A stretch of DNA of 64,000 bases from Rhodopila sp. (GTDB taxonomy: Bacteria; Pseudomonadota; Alphaproteobacteria; Acetobacterales; Acetobacteraceae), in assembly GCF_035548235.1 (NCBI RefSeq), contig NZ_DASZTJ010000033.1, positions 18,643 to 82,642 of the forward strand. The letters are read 5' to 3'. This document shows positions 13,047-20,990 of the stretch, in pieces. Made by a program: the position numbers and the translations under genes. Below the pieces are notes generated by a model that was not told the DNA's origin, made no database searches, and saw nothing but the letters and a program-made list of their open reading frames with translations. Position 1 is the first letter of the stretch, and each line of letters starts with the position of its first letter.

Positions 13047-15929
13047 ATGCAACTCACCCCCGGACTCAGGATCGCCGCACGCGGTCTTGAGTGGGACGTC
13101 ATTGACGCCGACCCGCCCCCAGACCCCTCCATCGCGGAACATCGCCGCGTGCGCCTTTGCTGCGCGTCGGGTGACCTCGCAGGGCTGGAATGGGACATCC
13201 TTCACCCCCTCGAGCCTGTAACGGTCTTGCGCGCCGACCCGGACCCACGAGCCCCCGATAGTCTGCGGGACTGGTGGCTCTACCATACCGCCTGGCTGTT
13301 CGATCAGGTGCCCGGCCCTGCGACCCAAGCCGGCCGCATGACGATCGAGCCATATCAGCAGGTACCGGTACGGCGCGCGCTCGACATGGTGCGCCCGCGG
13401 TTGCTGCTGGCGGATGGTGTCGGCCTTGGGAAGACCATCCAGGCCGGGCTGATCGCCGCGGAACTCCTGGTGCGCCGCCGAGCGCACAGGATCCTGGTGG
13501 TAACGCCGCCGGGACCGCTGCTGCGACAGTGGGAGCAGGAGATGCGGCTGCGCTTCGGCCTCCGCTTCGCCGTCCTGGCCGACGCACCCAGCCTGCGGGA
13601 GGCGCGCGCTCGGCTCGAATTCGGCGGCAACCCGTTCGAGGCGACGTCCCTCTGCCTCACTTCCATCGATTTCGCCAAGTCGGACCAGGTACTGATGGAA
13701 TTGGAGAGGACGCGCTGGGACCTTGTGATCATCGACGAAGCGCATCACTGCGCTCAACCGGACTCCCGTCGTCATCTGCTCGCGAGGGTTCTGTCACGCA
13801 TTTCGGACGGTCTGCTGCTGCTGACCGCCACGCCGCATGACGGCAACGACGCGCATTTCGCTGCGCTGATGGCGCTGCTGGACCCCAGCCTCGTAGACGG
13901 GGCGGGCCGGCTTGTCGGCACCGCCTATCGCCGCCACGTGGTGCGGCGTTTGAAATCGCATATCCGCGACCCGCGCACTGGCCTGCCTCTGTTCCGCGAG
14001 CGCCGGGTCCAGCCGGTGCGGGTGATGGTCGATGCCGATCCTGTGTGCGCCTTCCATAAGGCGCTCTCTGACCTCGTGCTGCCTCGCCTGCGCACCCCGC
14101 GCGACACGAGGCATCTGACCGATGCCTTGGCGTTCGTGACCTTATTGAAACGGTCTCTCTCGACCCTTGCTGCCTGCGTCGCCACGCTGCGCGTCGTTGC
14201 CGCCCGCCTTGGCGCCACCGACAGCCTTGCCCGGCGACGGGAGCGCCAGCGGGCGCTGCGGGCTTGGTGCCGCCGTGTGGCCCGTTATGGGGTGCTGTCG
14301 GCGGCCGAGGAAAGCGCCGTCGCTTCCCTTGAAGCGGAAGAAATGGCCACCAGCCTCGATGCTGCGACGGCCGAGGCGCTGAACGCATTGATCGCGGCGG
14401 GCGAAGCGGCGATCCCGCTTGATCCAAAGCTGCAAGCCCTGCGACAGGAAATCCGCCTGATCCGGCTGGAACAGCCGAACGCCAATGTCCTTGTCTATAC
14501 GGAATACGCCGAAAGCCAGCGAGCCGCCGCGATGGCGCTCGCGGAGCTTGGCGGGATCGTGCTCACGATCGCCGGCACCGATACGGAGGCAGAGCGAACC
14601 GGCGCGGCCGAGCAGTTCGCCGAACAGGACGGCATTGTGCTGATCAGCACGGACGCGCTGGCCGAGGGCTTGAATCTGCATCGACGCTGCCGCCACCTGA
14701 TTCATCTCGACCTGCCCTACAACCCCAACCGGCTGGAACAGCGCAACGGCCGCATCGACCGCTACGGCCAGGTCCACGACCCCGACATCCGCTATTGTTA
14801 CCTCGTCGGCACGTTCGAGGAGCGCCTGCTGCTGAAGTTGATCGAGAAATACGAAGCCGCCAGGGTCTGCTTGGACATCATGCCGGACACGCTTGCGGTT
14901 TCATCCGCAACCGGTGGCCTGCGCGAGCCGATCTTCGCCGGGGGCACGGATGACTTGTTCGCCGGCCTGCCCCGCCTGGTCCAGTCCCTGGACCAGGCCG
15001 CCGAGGACACCGCGAGCGAGGCCTGGCGCGACCTGTTGCGAGAGATCGACCACGCCTTCAAGGCGTTCGAGGACATGGCCGTCCGCCACGGCTGGCTGGG
15101 CGGCGGCCCTACGGGTGATCCAACCGATCCAGTCACCGAAGCGCCGCTGGGGCTCACCGTTCACACCTTCGTCGCCGCGGCGTTGCCCGACGGCAAGGTG
15201 CCGGGATCGTGGGCCACCGATCTCCATGCGCTGCCGGGCTTCGACGGCACGACGAACACGGTTCGGCTCACAGACGATCCCGACCGGCTGCACGATCGTC
15301 TTTACCCCGGTCGCGCCCATCCCCTCACGCGTCGTGTCATCGCGCGGCTTCGCGCGGGCAGGACGGGGCAGGTGGCAGCAGCGCGGGGGGAGGTGTCGCT
15401 GATAGCCACTTATGCCGTCGAGACCGGGGACGGCCGCTTCCGCACCCTGTTCGCGCTGCGCCAATACCCTGACGGCCGTATCGTCGACGAGCCGGATTGG
15501 TTGCGGCACGCCGACCGTCCGTCCATGGTTGCCGACTGGGACACAGATTTCGCGCCCTGGGCCGGCGGTCCGGCACTGGATCGGGCGGCCGGTGCCGCCG
15601 CCGATAGAGCGGTTGCCACGCATGCCGCCGCGGAAGCGCGACGGGCCGAAAAGGCGGAGCTCGAAGTCGCCGCTTGGCTGCGCCGCCGCGCCGACGAAAT
15701 CTGCGGACCCGCGCCGAAGCCCGGCACGGGCGATCTGTTCGCCGCCGCCCGGCCGGTGATTGCCGCGGCGCCCGAAACCCGGCTAGCCCGGTGTGCCGCC
15801 GACCCCGATCAGCCCGACGCTACTCGCCAAGCGGCGGCCGAGGTGCTGGCTATCTTCGCCGCAAGGCCGCGTCCGTGTGCCTCCGAAATGCGGCTGCGCA
15901 AGCTGGGCCTGTTGCTGCTCCACCCATGA
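13047..15929 (+). CDS. SNF2-family helicase, DISARM DrmD-like
   Basis: LLADGVGLGKT (motif I), DEAHH (II), LLTATP (III), EGLNL (V), EQRNGRIDRYGQ (VI). Confidence 0.88.
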   Translation: MQLTPGLRIAARGLEWDVIDADPPPDPSIAEHRRVRLCCASGDLAGLEWDILHPLEPVTVLRADPDPRAPDSLRDWWLYHTAWLFDQVPGPATQAGRMTIEPYQQVPVRRALDMVRPRLLLADGVGLGKTIQAGLIAAELLVRRRAHRILVVTPPGPLLRQWEQEMRLRFGLRFAVLADAPSLREARARLEFGGNPFEATSLCLTSIDFAKSDQVLMELERTRWDLVIIDEAHHCAQPDSRRHLLARVLSRISDGLLLLTATPHDGNDAHFAALMALLDPSLVDGAGRLVGTAYRRHVVRRLKSHIRDPRTGLPLFRERRVQPVRVMVDADPVCAFHKALSDLVLPRLRTPRDTRHLTDALAFVTLLKRSLSTLAACVATLRVVAARLGATDSLARRRERQRALRAWCRRVARYGVLSAAEESAVASLEAEEMATSLDAATAEALNALIAAGEAAIPLDPKLQALRQEIRLIRLEQPNANVLVYTEYAESQRAAAMALAELGGIVLTIAGTDTEAERTGAAEQFAEQDGIVLISTDALAEGLNLHRRCRHLIHLDLPYNPNRLEQRNGRIDRYGQVHDPDIRYCYLVGTFEERLLLKLIEKYEAARVCLDIMPDTLAVSSATGGLREPIFAGGTDDLFAGLPRLVQSLDQAAEDTASEAWRDLLREIDHAFKAFEDMAVRHGWLGGGPTGDPTDPVTEAPLGLTVHTFVAAALPDGKVPGSWATDLHALPGFDGTTNTVRLTDDPDRLHDRLYPGRAHPLTRRVIARLRAGRTGQVAAARGEVSLIATYAVETGDGRFRTLFALRQYPDGRIVDEPDWLRHADRPSMVADWDTDFAPWAGGPALDRAAGAAADRAVATHAAAEARRAEKAELEVAAWLRRRADEICGPAPKPGTGDLFAAARPVIAAAPETRLARCAADPDQPDATRQAAAEVLAIFAARPRPCASEMRLRKLGLLLLHP

Positions 15930-18900
15930 GCCTTGATCTTCGCGATTGCACCTTATCCGGTCCGGCGCTGACCGAAAGCTTTCTGCAAGACGGCCTGCCG
16001 CCGACTTCCGAGGCCGGCCACGCATGGGCCACCGCGCGCATCGGCACGATGCGCCGGATCACCGCCGCCCTTGGCTACGGCCGGCCCGTCCGGCAGGCAC
16101 CGATCCTGACCCGGGAAGGGGAGGAGGACGGCGGTTTCCTGGCGCGATCCGGGACCGTCCGCCTGCGTGTCTGGTCGGTCGCATGCAGTTCGGCCCCGGA
16201 TCCCACCCATCGGACCAGCCCAACCCGCGTCGCACAGCGTGTCCTGTTCGCGGCGCGTGAGACCGCCGGACTGCTGATTGAAGGCCCGGTCCTGCGCCTG
16301 CTGCTGTGCGACGCCAGCCGATCCGACACCTGCCTGAGCGTTGCGATCGACGACTGGCCTGCTCGTGATTCAGTACCGGATTCGTGGCGTTTGCTGTTCA
16401 CCCTGATTGCCGCCCGCGCTCTCCCCGCGCTTCCTGGCATTCTCGACCGCGCGCGACTGCATCAGACAAAGGTGACGGCGGCACTGCGCATCCAGGCGCG
16501 GGAGGCCATCCTCGGTTTCGTCAACGCCCTGCCGGCGCGGCGCGGCGTAACGGCTTCAGCGCTGTGGCAGGATGCGCTGATCCTGGTCTACCGCCTGCTT
16601 TTCGTGCTGAAGCTGGAAAGCGCAGCCGGCCAGGCCTTCAGCTTCGCGGCGTCCTCACTCTGGCGCGGGGCGTTCTCGCCTAACCAGGCGCTGGGGCCGC
16701 TGGTCCGGCGGCACCTGGATTTCGGCCACGATACGGGGCGAATGCTGCAGGATGGGCTGCGCCGGATGTTCGACCTGTTCCGGGACGGCGTACGCGCGAC
16801 CGGCCTGAGTGTCGCGCCTTTGGGCGGCATGCTGTTCGGAGCGACGACCCTGCCGCATCTCGGGTCGCTGGATTGGGGGGAGCGCGCGGTGGCGATCCTG
16901 CTCGACCGGTTGATCTGGCTGCCGAACAAGCCTGGGCTGGTTCGTTCTCGGGTGCATTATGGCAGCCTGGGCGTCGAGGACCTGGGTGGCGTCTACGAAG
17001 CGCTGCTGGAACTGGAACCCCGGTTCACCGAGGACGGGACCTTCCTGCTGCACCCCGGGCCGGGCCGGAAGGCGAGCGGGGCCTATTACACGCCGCGCGA
17101 CTTCGTGCGGTTCCTGGTGCGTGAGACGCTCGATCCCCTGATCGCAGCGCGCAGCCCGTCGTACGACCCGGACCCTGCGGCGCTGCTGCGGCTGAAGCTG
17201 GTCGACCCTGCCACCGGCAGCGGCCATTTCCTGGTCGAGGCCTGCCGGCATCTGTCCGACGCGGTCCTGACCGCCGCGCGCCAAGCCGATGCGCTGGGCC
17301 TGACCGACCGGATCGCGGCCATCCCCGACCCGGACGCGACGCTGGTCCCGTACCTGCCCAGCCACGGCGACAACGAGACGATCGCGCGCGCCATCTGTCG
17401 CCGGCTGGTGGCGGTGCATTGCCTGTATGGTTGCGACAGGAACCCTTTGGCCGTGACTTTGGCCAAGCTGTCGCTATGGCTGGAGTCCTGGGCCGAGGGC
17501 CTGCCGCTGACCTTCCTCGACCACCGCATCGTGCATGGCGACGCACTGACCGGGCCGTTCTTCGCGCATTTGACGACCCTGCCGGTGACCGGTGGGCCGC
17601 TCGATCCGCTGTTGGCGCGGGATGTGATCGCGTGCCTGCTGGCGCGGATGACGGCGGCGCGGGACCTGATATCCCGGCTGGACGCCTCGATCGGCCGCGA
17701 TCTGCGGGACGTCGCGGCGAAACAAGCCGTGAAGCAGGAGGTCGACACGCTCTTGTCTCCACTGCGGCGGTTGGCCCAAGCCTGGGCCGAGACCGCGATG
17801 ACCGGCGCGCGGGATGGGGACGATCGATGGATCGCGTTGGCTCGGGCGGTGATGGCCGCGGATGGGCCGCACCCTCTCGTCATGGTGGGCGAAGGCCCTC
17901 CATTCGCGCCTCCCGAGGCTGATCGCGCCAAACATATGGAGAGCTGGCACGCGGCTGGTCATGATGACGGGACCGTGGGGCTGTCGGAACCCCAATCCCT
18001 GTCCTGGGACCTCATTTTCCCCGACGTCTTCCCTGCCGGCTTCGACATCGTGCTTGGCAATCCACCCTGGGATGTGGTGTTGCCCAACAGCGTTGATTTC
18101 GTCGCCGATATCGATCCGTCCGTCCGCCTCGCCGCCACGCGCCAAACCCGGGCTGCGATCCAGCGCAGGGTGCTGTCCGACCCGGCGGTCGCAGAGCGGT
18201 TCGAGGCCTATCGTGCAGGGTTCGAGCGGCTGAAGCGGATCGTCCCTCGCTTGTACCCCCTGCAGCGCGGGGCATCCGGCAGTCTCGACCTGTATCGCTT
18301 GTTCGCCGAACGCGCCTTGTCGCTTGCGGCCGAGGATGGAACGATCGGCCTGGTGCTGCCCTCGGCCTTCCATGCCAATGCCGGGGCCGCCCGGTTGCGG
18401 CGGCACTATCTGGACTCGACACGGATCGATTGGTGCCTCTCGTTCGAGAACCGCAGTCGCTGGTTCGACATCGACAGCCGTTTCAAATTCGACCTGATCG
18501 TCGCCCGACGCCCCGGCCCGACGCATGCCCTGCGCTGCGGCTTCTACCTGGGACACTTGGCCGAGGTCGAGGAATCGGGCCGGACCATGACTTATCCTCG
18601 CGGTTTCCTGGACGCGGCCGGCGGCGTGCATCTGACCCCGCCGGAACTGCGCGGCGTCAAGGATCTACGCCTCGCCGAACGCCTCTACACCAATCCCGTC
18701 CGCTTCGGCGCCTGGTGCGAGGCGCGGCGCATCCGCTTCGGCTGCGACCTGCACATGACTGCCGACGCGGCGCTGTTCCGGCCAGCAGGCGAGGGTGGCC
18801 TGGTGCTGCATGAGGGCAAGACCTTCCACCAGTTCACCACGTTTTGGGACACCGAACCGCGCTACAGCGTCAACGAAGAGGCGTTGCGTCCCGCAATCGC

Positions 18901-19393
18901 GACGGCATCGCGGCATGTTCGGTTGGCGTTCCGCGACATCGCCCGTTCGAACGACGAGCGCACCATGATCGCCTGCCTGGCGCCCGCGGGGACGGTGTTC
19001 GGCCACACCGCAACGGTCGAGCAGGCGCCCTGGGCACGCGACCCGACCGACGCCGCGCTGCTGTGCGCGGTGCTCAATTCCTTCCCCTTCGATTGGCTGA
19101 TCCGGCAAAAGGCCGCGACGCATCTGAGCTTGTATCTACTGAACGACTTGCCGATGCCGGCCCTGACCCCGGCGCAGGCGACCTTCCTGGCTTCGGCTGC
19201 CACGCGGGGCGTGCCGCCGCCAGCCGAACGGGCACGCATGGATGCGGTCGTGGCGCACGGATATGGCCTGGATCGCGCGCACTACGCCCGCCTGCTGGCC
19301 GGGTTCTCGCATCGGTCCTGGCCTGATGCGCCCGAGGCTTGCTTGGATGCGTTCGATCATGCCGACCTGGTCTGCCCGCCATGCGCAGCCTGA
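15926..19393 (+). CDS. Type IIG/Eco57I-like N6-adenine DNA methyltransferase with TRD (DrmMI-like); nuclease region looks degenerate
   Basis: ATGA overlap with the helicase; GAYYTP, DPATGSGHFL (motif I), GNPPW (motif IV), RLAFRDIARSNDERT and LNSFPFDW specificity-domain motifs. Confidence 0.88.
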   Translation: MSLDLRDCTLSGPALTESFLQDGLPPTSEAGHAWATARIGTMRRITAALGYGRPVRQAPILTREGEEDGGFLARSGTVRLRVWSVACSSAPDPTHRTSPTRVAQRVLFAARETAGLLIEGPVLRLLLCDASRSDTCLSVAIDDWPARDSVPDSWRLLFTLIAARALPALPGILDRARLHQTKVTAALRIQAREAILGFVNALPARRGVTASALWQDALILVYRLLFVLKLESAAGQAFSFAASSLWRGAFSPNQALGPLVRRHLDFGHDTGRMLQDGLRRMFDLFRDGVRATGLSVAPLGGMLFGATTLPHLGSLDWGERAVAILLDRLIWLPNKPGLVRSRVHYGSLGVEDLGGVYEALLELEPRFTEDGTFLLHPGPGRKASGAYYTPRDFVRFLVRETLDPLIAARSPSYDPDPAALLRLKLVDPATGSGHFLVEACRHLSDAVLTAARQADALGLTDRIAAIPDPDATLVPYLPSHGDNETIARAICRRLVAVHCLYGCDRNPLAVTLAKLSLWLESWAEGLPLTFLDHRIVHGDALTGPFFAHLTTLPVTGGPLDPLLARDVIACLLARMTAARDLISRLDASIGRDLRDVAAKQAVKQEVDTLLSPLRRLAQAWAETAMTGARDGDDRWIALARAVMAADGPHPLVMVGEGPPFAPPEADRAKHMESWHAAGHDDGTVGLSEPQSLSWDLIFPDVFPAGFDIVLGNPPWDVVLPNSVDFVADIDPSVRLAATRQTRAAIQRRVLSDPAVAERFEAYRAGFERLKRIVPRLYPLQRGASGSLDLYRLFAERALSLAAEDGTIGLVLPSAFHANAGAARLRRHYLDSTRIDWCLSFENRSRWFDIDSRFKFDLIVARRPGPTHALRCGFYLGHLAEVEESGRTMTYPRGFLDAAGGVHLTPPELRGVKDLRLAERLYTNPVRFGAWCEARRIRFGCDLHMTADAALFRPAGEGGLVLHEGKTFHQFTTFWDTEPRYSVNEEALRPAIATASRHVRLAFRDIARSNDERTMIACLAPAGTVFGHTATVEQAPWARDPTDAALLCAVLNSFPFDWLIRQKAATHLSLYLLNDLPMPALTPAQATFLASAATRGVPPPAERARMDAVVAHGYGLDRAHYARLLAGFSHRSWPDAPEACLDAFDHADLVCPPCAA

Positions 19394-20130
19394 TTGGTTA
19401 TTTCGGCCTCGCGCGGCTGGCCGGGGCGACCGCACCGGTGATCGAGACAGCGATCGTCGCTCCGCTGCGCGAAGCAGGCTTCGAGATCCTCCGGGCCGGC
19501 CATTTCAACTGCCCCGCCGCGCTGGACAATCCGCGTTCGGGGGAGCGTGGCGCGATTCCCGATGCCGACCCGGCACGGCTGCTGTCGCTCGATGCCTGCG
19601 AGCAGGAGGTCCAGACGGACGACGCAATCGCCGAGGCCTTCGCGACTGCGCGCGCCTATCCGGACGCGTTCGGCGATGGATATCGCAGCTTGCGGAACCT
19701 TTGCCACCAGCTCCGCAGCCTGGACCGGTTATGGCGGCTATTGGCGGCATTCCGTCCGGGGCCGGAAGATGTCGTGCTGTTGCTGCGTCCGGATCTGCTG
19801 TACCTGGACCCGCTCGTAATTGGTCGAGACCTCGGTGAGCTGCTGGCCGGCGGCATCGACCTCGTCGTGCCCGCTTGGCAAAGCTGGGGTGGGCTGAACG
19901 ACCGCTTCGCTTTCGCAACGCCGCACGCCGCACGGGTCTACGCCACGCGCTATCGATTGATCGCGGATGGCTGCACTGCCATGGGCGGGTTGCATGCCGA
20001 ACGGTTCCTGGCGTTCAGCGCGGGGTTGCATGGCCTGCGTGTGGCGCGGACGCCGTTGCGGGCGGCGCGGCTGCGCGTGAATGGTGATATCGCGGGAAAC
20101 GATCTGCGGATGCTTGACGTCCAGGCATGA
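19381..20130 (+). CDS. Hypothetical protein, glycosyltransferase-like
   Basis: ATG overlaps the MTase end by 13 nt; LLRPDL and WGGLNDRFAF motifs resemble uncharacterised GT-A-like families. Confidence 0.6.
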   Translation: MRSLIGYFGLARLAGATAPVIETAIVAPLREAGFEILRAGHFNCPAALDNPRSGERGAIPDADPARLLSLDACEQEVQTDDAIAEAFATARAYPDAFGDGYRSLRNLCHQLRSLDRLWRLLAAFRPGPEDVVLLLRPDLLYLDPLVIGRDLGELLAGGIDLVVPAWQSWGGLNDRFAFATPHAARVYATRYRLIADGCTAMGGLHAERFLAFSAGLHGLRVARTPLRAARLRVNGDIAGNDLRMLDVQA

Positions 20131-20297: not shown

Positions 20298-20591
20298 TTA
20301 TCTCCCGGAATTCCGGTGAAAGAACTTGCGCAGGCTATCTTTCGCCCGTTCCAATGTGCGTCGGCGATGCATTGGAAGCGTCTTGCCTGCCCTGTTGATA
20401 TAGAAAGTCAGCATAGACATGGCGGAGCGGTATGCACTGCCTTTGCGCCTATCGCTGTGTTCGGCCGACTCCTTCAGCGATTTCGCGATCGTATCTGGAT
20501 CCTTTGACTTGAAAATGTCCTTCTCAAGATCCAGGGCATCGCTGTGCCTGGTGACTTCCCCGGACCAACGAGCCTTGGTTTTCGTCGTCAT
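20298..20591 (-). CDS. DUF3175 family protein
   Basis: WSGEVTRHSDALDLE...SAMSMLTFYINRAG signature; GGGAGAG SD; start re-called at 20591. Confidence 0.88.
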   Translation of the reverse strand: MTTKTKARWSGEVTRHSDALDLEKDIFKSKDPDTIAKSLKESAEHSDRRKGSAYRSAMSMLTFYINRAGKTLPMHRRRTLERAKDSLRKFFHRNSGR

Positions 20592-20771: not shown

Positions 20772-20990
20772 ATGGCCGATCAAAGGCATTCTGGTAACCC
20801 CGGCAACTTTGCGGAAGACCGCGAGAAGGCAGCGAAGGCCGGGCATGTCGGTGGCCAGCACAGCAGCGGCAACTTCGGCAATGATCGCGAGCGCGCGGCC
20901 GAAGCAGGCCGCAAGGGCGGCCAGGCCAGTTCCGGCGGCTCCCATGAGCAGCACGTAAAGGCTGGTCAGCAAAGCCACAAGAACACCTGA
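20772..20990 (+). CDS. KGG-repeat general stress protein (YciG/GsiB-like)
   Basis: GNFAEDREKAAKAG and GNFGNDRERAAEAGRKGG repeats; GGAGG SD. Confidence 0.92.
   Translation: MADQRHSGNPGNFAEDREKAAKAGHVGGQHSSGNFGNDRERAAEAGRKGGQASSGGSHEQHVKAGQQSHKNT

Follow-up and report, generated by a model that had tools for sequence, protein, structure and literature searches.

Class 1 DISARM (defence island system that is associated with restriction-modification), reportedly described by Ofir et al. in 2018, is said to consist of drmD, drmMI, drmA, drmB and drmC. The disARM-related antiviral defence array (ARMADA) comprises ArmA, ArmB and ArmC, to which ArmD is added in type II (10.1101/2025.09.15.676423); Escherichia coli EDL933 carries armABCD (PMC13463889). 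ARMADA defence needs the Walker motifs of ArmA and the NPPW motif of ArmB (10.1101/2025.09.15.676423), and is abolished by deletion of any single gene, that of the YprA-like ArmC included (10.1101/2025.09.15.676423; PMC13463889). Both systems are recent. Here we analyse a stretch of 64,000 nucleotides (the window) from Rhodopila sp., family Acetobacteraceae (assembly GCF_035548235.1, contig NZ_DASZTJ010000033.1, positions 18,643 to 82,642 of the forward strand), which carries an SNF2 helicase gene followed by an N6-adenine DNA methyltransferase gene. The pair is most likely the "marking and sensing" half (ArmA-ArmB, DrmD-DrmMI-like) of an ARMADA/DISARM-type anti-phage system.

In the DISARM of Serratia sp. 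SCBI, DrmMI is an N6-methyladenine (m6A) methylase of a non-palindromic site that works without the effector genes; DrmMI and its companion DrmMII alone methylated ACACAG to 56.5%, as against 84.3% in the full system (10.1101/2021.12.28.474362). The BrxHII helicase of BREX (bacteriophage exclusion) type 3 and RapA share a layout of Tudor, Swi2/Snf2 and alpha+beta domains, the last a degenerate, inactive restriction endonuclease (PMC12839542). We propose, as the reading that we hold to be rather probable, that the window pair is a motor-assisted m6A-marking module devoid of a restriction arm, which has outlived its effector or never had one.

Architecture and family assignment of the pair

The two genes and their motifs lie as follows.

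13047..15929, + strand: SNF2 helicase (P0001), 960 amino acids (aa), a RapA/BrxHII/DrmD/ArmA-like Swi2/Snf2 ATPase
13416..13436, + strand: Walker A of the helicase, GVGLGKT, residues 124-130, conserved in orthologues
13734..13745, + strand: Walker B / DEAH box of the helicase, residues 230-233, conserved in orthologues
14739..14771, + strand: motif VI of the helicase, QRNGRIDRYGQ, residues 565-575, conserved in orthologues
15926..15929, + strand: ATGA stop/start overlap, helicase TGA and methylase ATG, read directly
15926..19393, + strand: N6-adenine DNA methyltransferase (P0002), 1155 aa, gamma-class, PglX/DrmMI/ArmB-like
17204..17230, + strand: motif I of the methylase, DPATGSGHF, residues 427-435, binding S-adenosylmethionine (SAM), conserved in orthologues
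18059..18070, + strand: motif IV of the methylase, NPPW, residues 712-715, conserved in orthologues

The original prediction, made from the letters of the sequence, had reported intact superfamily 2 helicase motifs, intact methylase motifs I and IV and an ATGA coupling, all of which were borne out: the motifs in 41 helicase and 40 methylase orthologues, and the overlap, which is predicted to couple the translation of the two genes, at 15926-15929. In the helicase V125-T130 of Walker A, the DEAH box and motif VI are invariant and G124 is nearly so; in the methylase D427, P428 and G431-F435 of motif I and the NPPW tetrapeptide are invariant, and A429 is nearly so. These catalytic motifs are kept across orthologues down to ~49% identity. 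Homologues align from residue 1, which supports both start codons, and the methylase is single-copy in the genome. A scan of the operon, uninformative in this GC-rich genome, found no sigma-70-like promoter and no terminator within it.

Pfam recognised SNF2-rel_dom, Helicase_C and ResIII in the helicase, and Eco57I (6.9e-16), MmeI_Mtase and N6_Mtase in the methylase. AlphaFold models built from the 40-41 orthologues reached a predicted local distance difference test score (pLDDT) of 73.2 for the helicase and 75.6 for the methylase. The helicase starts with a beta-rich Tudor-like domain (~1-60), which precedes the SNF2 core (98-600); a linker of low confidence (605-700) then leads to the alpha+beta domains at the C-terminus (700-960). 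In the methylase an alpha/beta domain (1-165) and a helical region (166-365) are followed by the catalytic core and a CamA-like C-terminal DNA-recognition region (~370-1155).

Among the hidden Markov models of PADLOC, the best for the helicase was DrmD (5.7e-99), with further matches to a DrmA-labelled model that is really SNF2-like, to BrxHII (9.3e-63), HmaA and DpdE; the best for the methylase was DrmMI (9.9e-80), followed by type IIG models (4.8e-47). In this respect the label "DISARM-like", under which the locus had originally been placed, is justified. It does not hold further, in that the helicase remains below the NCBIfam equivalog cut-off for DrmD (NF038317; 345.9 bits, cut-off 610) and the nearest full systems, as far as phylogeny and gene order tell, are ARMADA and not class I DISARM. 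The helicase also stays below the RapA equivalog cut-off (NF003426; 187 bits, cut-off 576). A bona fide ARMADA locus (L120) scored 358 and 300 bits with the DrmD and DrmMI models, the window pair 331 and 267. PADLOC, we presume, would file such loci as generic incomplete DNA-modification systems; annotation pipelines should not count them as DISARM.

ARMADA types I and II have the same gene order and coupling as the window, a RapA/BrxHII-like Swi2/Snf2 ATPase and then a PglX-like methylase. The window helicase is full-length 39-44% identical to the SNF2 genes of YprA-containing loci, the counterparts of ArmA, and the window methylase belongs to a clade that is sister to the methylases of these loci, the counterparts of ArmB. 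ARMADA methylases, however, are ~250-350 residues longer than that of the window; the Acetobacteraceae methylases are shorter than the ARMADA clade in every segment and lack its C-terminal tail of 65-160 residues, which, as a speculation, may be tied to effector coupling. In contrast to ARMADA, no YprA-like ArmC was found here, neither in the locus nor in the genome. ArmD, the RelE-fused UvrD/GajB-like helicase of type II, was not found among the neighbours of the locus, to which the search was confined. Whereas ARMADA is patchy and island- or plasmid-borne, the Acetobacteraceae pair is lineage-fixed at a metabolic locus. With class 1 DISARM the window shares the order SNF2 then methylase, and differs from it by the lack of DrmA, DrmB (DUF1998) and a linked DrmC of the phospholipase D (PLD) type. 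The pair would work like ArmA-ArmB and DrmD-DrmMI, with which it shares its descent, and stands outside both systems for want of the YprA/DrmAB helicase that defines them. Our search of the literature found no description of a YprA-less, lineage-fixed ArmA-ArmB clade.

The closest solved fold to the window methylase is that of PglX/BrxX from BREX (Foldseek matches 8q56, 8c45 and 9ewz at ~1e-12), its sequence match to PglX models being weak (1e-5 to 1e-7), and the helicase has the same domain layout as BrxHII and RapA. BREX identity was rejected, since PglZ (PF08665) gave 0 matches in the genome; there are no BrxA, BrxB or BrxC genes nearby either. BREX-related (BR) systems (PMC12839542) have a DUF499 ATPase beside a methylase and an SNF2 protein; no such ATPase is among the window neighbours, and the window methylase is instead of the Eco57I/PglX type. 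The core and C-terminal recognition region of the window methylase superpose on the orphan methylase CamA from Clostridioides difficile (PDB 7lni and others; TM score ~0.65 normalised to CamA). CamA, like the window pair, is without a cognate nuclease; it differs in its size (~580 aa), in standing alone without a partner ATPase, in lacking the 365-residue N-terminal extension and in sequence (~9-10% identity). For the helicase the best solved match in both sequence and structure over the full length is E. coli RapA (HepA; 6bog, 8so8), found at 2.5e-42 by PDB sequence search and, as full-length 6bog, at 1.7e-27 by Foldseek. RapA is an RNA-polymerase-recycling Swi2/Snf2 ATPase; it has a tandem N-terminal beta domain, whereas that of the window helicase is single and the window type is always paired with a methylase.

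The Acetobacteraceae clade and its relatives

A maximum-likelihood tree of 64 methylases unites the 48 rows from Acetobacteraceae in a single clade with a Shimodaira-Hasegawa-like approximate likelihood ratio test (SH-aLRT) value of 100, all of them without YprA; on the other side stands a multi-phylum clade of 16 rows. Because the tree is unrooted, it does not separate the loss of an effector from its never having been acquired. The terminal branch of the window methylase is the longest in the tree (0.64; median 0.27), and its linker (~340-390) has 50 residues where nearly all clade members have 75, that is, it is 25 shorter. The closest relatives of the window methylase, which are absent from the tree, probably share the short linker and the long branch.

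Within the family the pair turned up in 17 of the 301 genomes sampled, belonging to 7 of 143 genera, two of which have only a distant relative of 31% identity. Every sampled genome of four of the five orthologue-carrying genera has it, as do all nine sampled genomes whose RpoD is most like that of the window (88-91% identity). Ranked by identity to the window, the methylases follow the order of RpoD: the same genus stands above g72 and g107, and these two are equal to or slightly above g12. In the Acetobacteraceae clade the pair is present as a single copy and often occupies a conserved site: an adh_short gene flanks it in 29 loci and an enoyl-CoA hydratase (ECH) gene in 25; besides such metabolic flanks no gene recurs beside the pair in ~50 Acetobacteraceae loci. 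Pairwise identities of helicases and methylases correlate with r = 0.95 over 41 loci, at equal mean divergence; this correlation and the counts of distribution include non-independent kin. For both genes, seven close pairs gave a ratio of non-synonymous to synonymous substitution rates (dN/dS) of 0.10-0.21. The pair is co-inherited and under purifying selection, and it has probably been long resident and passed on mostly vertically.

These data bear on the idea that the pair is a decaying, functionless remnant of a lost defence system, to which we give next to no credence. It is true that the effector is gone, that a long terminal branch and a shortened linker mark the window methylase, and that the copies in one Acetobacteraceae genus look interrupted: in L040 (G011:C6) the SNF2 gene is split into open reading frames (ORFs) of 280 and 731 aa, and in L046/L010 (G151:C1) the methylase match has one in-frame TGA. 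This may reflect decay of the pair there, or mistakes in a long-read assembly. Against a remnant, however, both window ORFs are intact, their dN/dS is low and the catalytic motifs are invariant.

A one-genome-per-species scan gave 80 loci, selected via two conserved methylase peptides of the C-terminal recognition region; with the family scan and contig look-ups added, more than 90 related loci entered the context analysis. In almost all loci with enough upstream DNA, the gene immediately upstream of the methylase is that of an SNF2 protein. The closest relatives outside the Acetobacteraceae (34-44% identity) come from several phyla, one of them from a plasmid. A gene of 1400-2057 aa follows the methylase in ten loci (L099, L103, L119, L120, L121, L123, L125, L131, L133 and L134), and L136 gave an eleventh YprA-like match by tblastn; carriers of the large third gene include Azospirillum, Cyanobium, Limnoraphis, Microcoleus, Byssovorax and other Myxococcota. 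That of L120 has DEAD, Helicase_C and MZB domains, matches DruE models and is a YprA-like helicase as described for ArmC. A Pseudanabaena plasmid has the same arrangement, with an embedded toxin-antitoxin pair, an endonuclease and an exonuclease according to the annotation of the record. The YprA-containing sister loci match ARMADA as published (10.1101/2025.09.15.676423). Elsewhere, then, the pair is embedded in three- or four-gene systems, in this sample as in the published one (10.1101/2025.09.15.676423).

Some of these loci have features of their own. The C-terminal 130-180 residues of the YprA-like helicases at L099:12694-18798 and L119:16992-23165 match a Ser/Thr protein kinase domain, which suggests that kinase-tailed ARMADA effectors exist. 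In L097, from a genome of phylum UBP9, the 9.7 kb downstream of the pair contain no YprA gene; a divergent protein of 1449 aa with DUF4011, an SF1 helicase (AAA_11/AAA_12) and an MTES_1575 restriction endonuclease precedes the pair there (L097:2122-6471, - strand) and may be an alternative effector. Cargo after the methylase consists of AAA_21/AAA_15 (AbiEii/OLD-like) ATPases and a Schlafen/AlbA_2 protein (L105:13998-15764, L119:15044-16243, L128:6867-8105), and in the Pseudanabaena plasmid a Phd/VapC toxin-antitoxin pair is placed between the SNF2 and methylase genes (L139:8158-8863).

The search for an effector and a nuclease

The genome of the window measures 5.27 Mb and is 97.9% complete, in a fragmented assembly of 302 contigs. 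PF09369 (DUF1998/MZB), the hallmark of DrmB and YprA, had 0 matches in it; the same model was positive in 8 of 14 reference genomes that served as control. It had 0 matches also in five other pair-carrying genomes, two of which are assembled into ~10-40 contigs. The PADLOC model of DrmA, run genome-wide, returned the SNF2 gene itself and one weak match of 28 bits elsewhere. When ten YprA-like proteins from the sister loci were compared with the genome by tblastn, they matched nothing but a region of generic helicase sequence and a Ser/Thr kinase; the kinase match, at the edge of contig C10, was discarded as a domain shared with some YprA-like C-termini. Neighbour clustering and tblastn detected no YprA-like sequence in the ~50 Acetobacteraceae orthologue loci with ~10 kb downstream of them.

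A DISARM or ARMADA split between this locus and another place in the genome was rejected, since PF09369, the DrmA model and the ten YprA queries gave nothing specific. The absence of drmABC, which the original prediction had stated, was confirmed among the annotated neighbours. As to drmABC elsewhere, which that prediction had considered, the answer is negative for DrmA and DrmB; DrmC was searched at the locus only, where no PLD-domain gene occurs among the annotated neighbours at 1858-27570, the genome-wide search not having been made as housekeeping PLD proteins confound it.

It is improbable in our view that the pair is part of a split system of another kind, serving as the self/non-self marker for an unlinked effector of another family. 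The fragmentation of the assembly and the fact that defence components can be unlinked leave room for such an effector, and the ARMADA clade does have a flexible slot, whose varied extra genes include AAA_21 ATPases, an exonuclease and a toxin-antitoxin pair. However, no YprA, DUF1998 or PglZ was found in the genome and no PF09369 in the five other carriers, only metabolic flanks recur across ~50 loci, and of the five carriers tested four yielded no match to the sole extra gene that recurs (19381-20130).

A nuclease within the pair was sought as well. Neither protein has a Pfam match to a nuclease, and among the 40-41 orthologues no lysine is invariant or nearly invariant within residues 1-200 of the methylase or 602-960 of the helicase. 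These stretches include the two parts in which a PD-(D/E)xK fold might be concealed, methylase residues 1-165 and helicase residues 700-960. With no conserved lysine there, neither protein has a conserved PD-(D/E)xK signature; a non-canonical nuclease active site could be missed by sequence alone. These results bear on a restriction-modification enzyme of type IIG or type ISP-like kind, divided over two genes and hiding a cryptic nuclease in the N-terminal domain of the methylase or the C-terminal domains of the helicase. The type IIG models of PADLOC match the methylase, Foldseek lists DrdV and BpuSI for it, its N-terminal domain (1-165) is modelled with confidence as an alpha/beta fold, and the C-terminal domain of RapA/BrxHII is described as a degenerate restriction endonuclease fold (PMC12839542). 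Such an enzyme is nevertheless highly improbable: in addition to the missing signature and Pfam match, the type IIG enzymes match its structure less well than PglX/BrxX, which are not known to have nuclease activity.

Marking, defence and the genes around the pair

We propose that the YprA-like helicase-nuclease effector was lost in an ancestor of the Rhodopila/Acidisphaera branch of Acetobacteraceae, or had never reached it, and that the two-gene unit would since have been inherited mostly vertically as a self-contained module. The methylase would recognise a short, probably asymmetric DNA motif via its CamA/PglX-like C-terminal region and transfer the methyl group of SAM to N6 of one adenine. 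The RapA-like Swi2/Snf2 ATPase would bind the methylase and use ATP to move along or remodel double-stranded DNA, by which sites would be found or exposed and efficiently marked. The outcome would be a marked chromosome, the mark being epigenetic or a protection against foreign systems of the same specificity, and no cutting. Marking rather than cutting is suggested by the absence of a nuclease from both proteins and of an effector from the genome. We infer complex formation, the methylation activity and its motif, and the lack of restriction. The role given to the motor fits both the incomplete methylation by DrmMI and DrmMII alone (10.1101/2021.12.28.474362) and the requirement for the ATPase of ArmA (10.1101/2025.09.15.676423).

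A further step, which we put forward tentatively, is that a defence marking module was domesticated into a lineage-fixed, motor-driven epigenetic writer. The original prediction had offered two possibilities, a stand-alone two-component defence or modification system and a domesticated epigenetic writer with its own translocase. The evidence leans to the latter because the YprA-less clade is monophyletic, its synteny is conserved, it is under purifying selection and no nuclease is present.

The opposite view is that of an autonomous, nuclease-free defence, in which the pair detects unmethylated foreign DNA and its motor blocks replication or transcription, e.g. by displacing polymerases; the pair would then be a minimal BREX-like exclusion system. 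Its ancestry is clearly a defence system, the ATPase and methylase motifs are invariant and the cassette was relocated in the window lineage. The ATPase activity of ArmA is essential in ARMADA (10.1101/2025.09.15.676423), and BREX type 3 has in BrxHII a helicase of the same architecture (PMC12839542). We regard autonomous defence as unlikely, though by no means negligible: loss of any ARMADA gene, ArmC among them, abolishes protection (10.1101/2025.09.15.676423; PMC13463889). Moreover, the genus-wide fixation and conserved synteny of the pair are unlike the patchy, island-borne, multi-phylum sister clade, and no defence genes are adjacent to it.

Several points weigh against marking without restriction as we favour it. 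BREX excludes phage by a methylase-based system without an obvious nuclease, and the absence of a nuclease is thus no proof of absent defence. An unlinked effector of a different family could escape homology searches. The pair is not universal in the Acetobacteraceae, being confined to 7 of the 143 sampled genera. In the window and in L005 (73-76% identity) the pair and a 249-aa gene occupy different, non-ancestral contexts; having moved to at least two new contexts in the window lineage, the pair keeps some mobility. L100 (~85% in the best-matching segments), the upstream flank of which ends with the contig, has none of the window's flanking genes. Selection at a dN/dS of 0.1-0.2 is purifying, yet laxer than on core housekeeping genes. 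Conservation of the C-terminal recognition region is no higher than in the ARMADA clade, both clades being evenly conserved. Hypervariability of the recognition domain was tried as a discriminator between defence and domestication and proved uninformative, as the clades are alike in it and the loci had been selected via peptides from there.

Having kept just these two genes, intact and co-evolving, the Acetobacteraceae clade is a natural separation-of-function experiment, and speaks for the helicase-methylase pair as a functional unit by itself. If the pair is an epigenetic regulator, it would exemplify a defence module turned to host use, and if it still defends, it would be a very small methylation-based, nuclease-free system. 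Rhodopila globiformis DSM 161 is a cultured carrier of the pair, which lies there on scaffold 50 (locus L065).

A third gene on the same strand, not mentioned in the original prediction, overlaps the end of the methylase, to which it would be translationally coupled.

19381..20130, + strand: hypothetical protein (P0241), 249 aa, clade-specific, its start overlapping the methylase end by 13 nt

L005 has a 76% identical copy in the same position, and the gene adjoins the pair in L063, L091, L100, L106, L115 and L138 too. In Rhodopila globiformis and G208 it lies on a different contig from the pair, and of five pair-carrying genomes tested, four (G140, G298, G229 and G267) gave no match to it. 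Its downstream partner gene varies between genomes. The protein, for which Pfam, NCBIfam, PHROG and PDB gave no match, has 209 homologue clusters confined to Rhodopila-like bacteria, with the conserved motifs W-x-x-W-G-G-L-N-D-R-F-A and R-P-D-L. As an obligatory third component the gene was rejected, because most carriers either have it unlinked or yielded no match, and because its own partner varies; it is a facultative neighbour and no core component.

The nearest named relatives of the genome are Rhodopila and Acidisphaera. Upstream of the pair are carB, carA, dnaG, rpoD and a thioesterase gene, and downstream the 249-aa gene, a DUF3175 gene, a KGG-repeat stress protein gene and an operon of a thiamine pyrophosphate (TPP) enzyme. 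The GC content of the pair (0.68-0.69) is slightly higher than that of its flanks (~0.65) and host-like, and no integrase or transposase gene is among the annotated neighbours, in agreement with what had been read from the sequence at first; no tRNA gene was found. A functional tie to rpoD, or a RapA-like role in transcription deduced from position, was rejected, as no relative has the pair beside rpoD. Comparison with the empty site in genomes of the same genus was defeated by flanking thioesterase and TPP-enzyme genes that have diverged too far or are paralogous. Two small genes separate the cassette from the TPP-enzyme operon, the DUF3175 gene (20298-20591, - strand; 2.1e-42) and the gene of the 72-aa KGG-repeat stress protein (20772-20990, + strand; 5.2e-12), which has a strong GGAGG ribosome-binding site. 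The ~1-kb stretch with these two genes has the lowest GC content of the neighbourhood (0.61).

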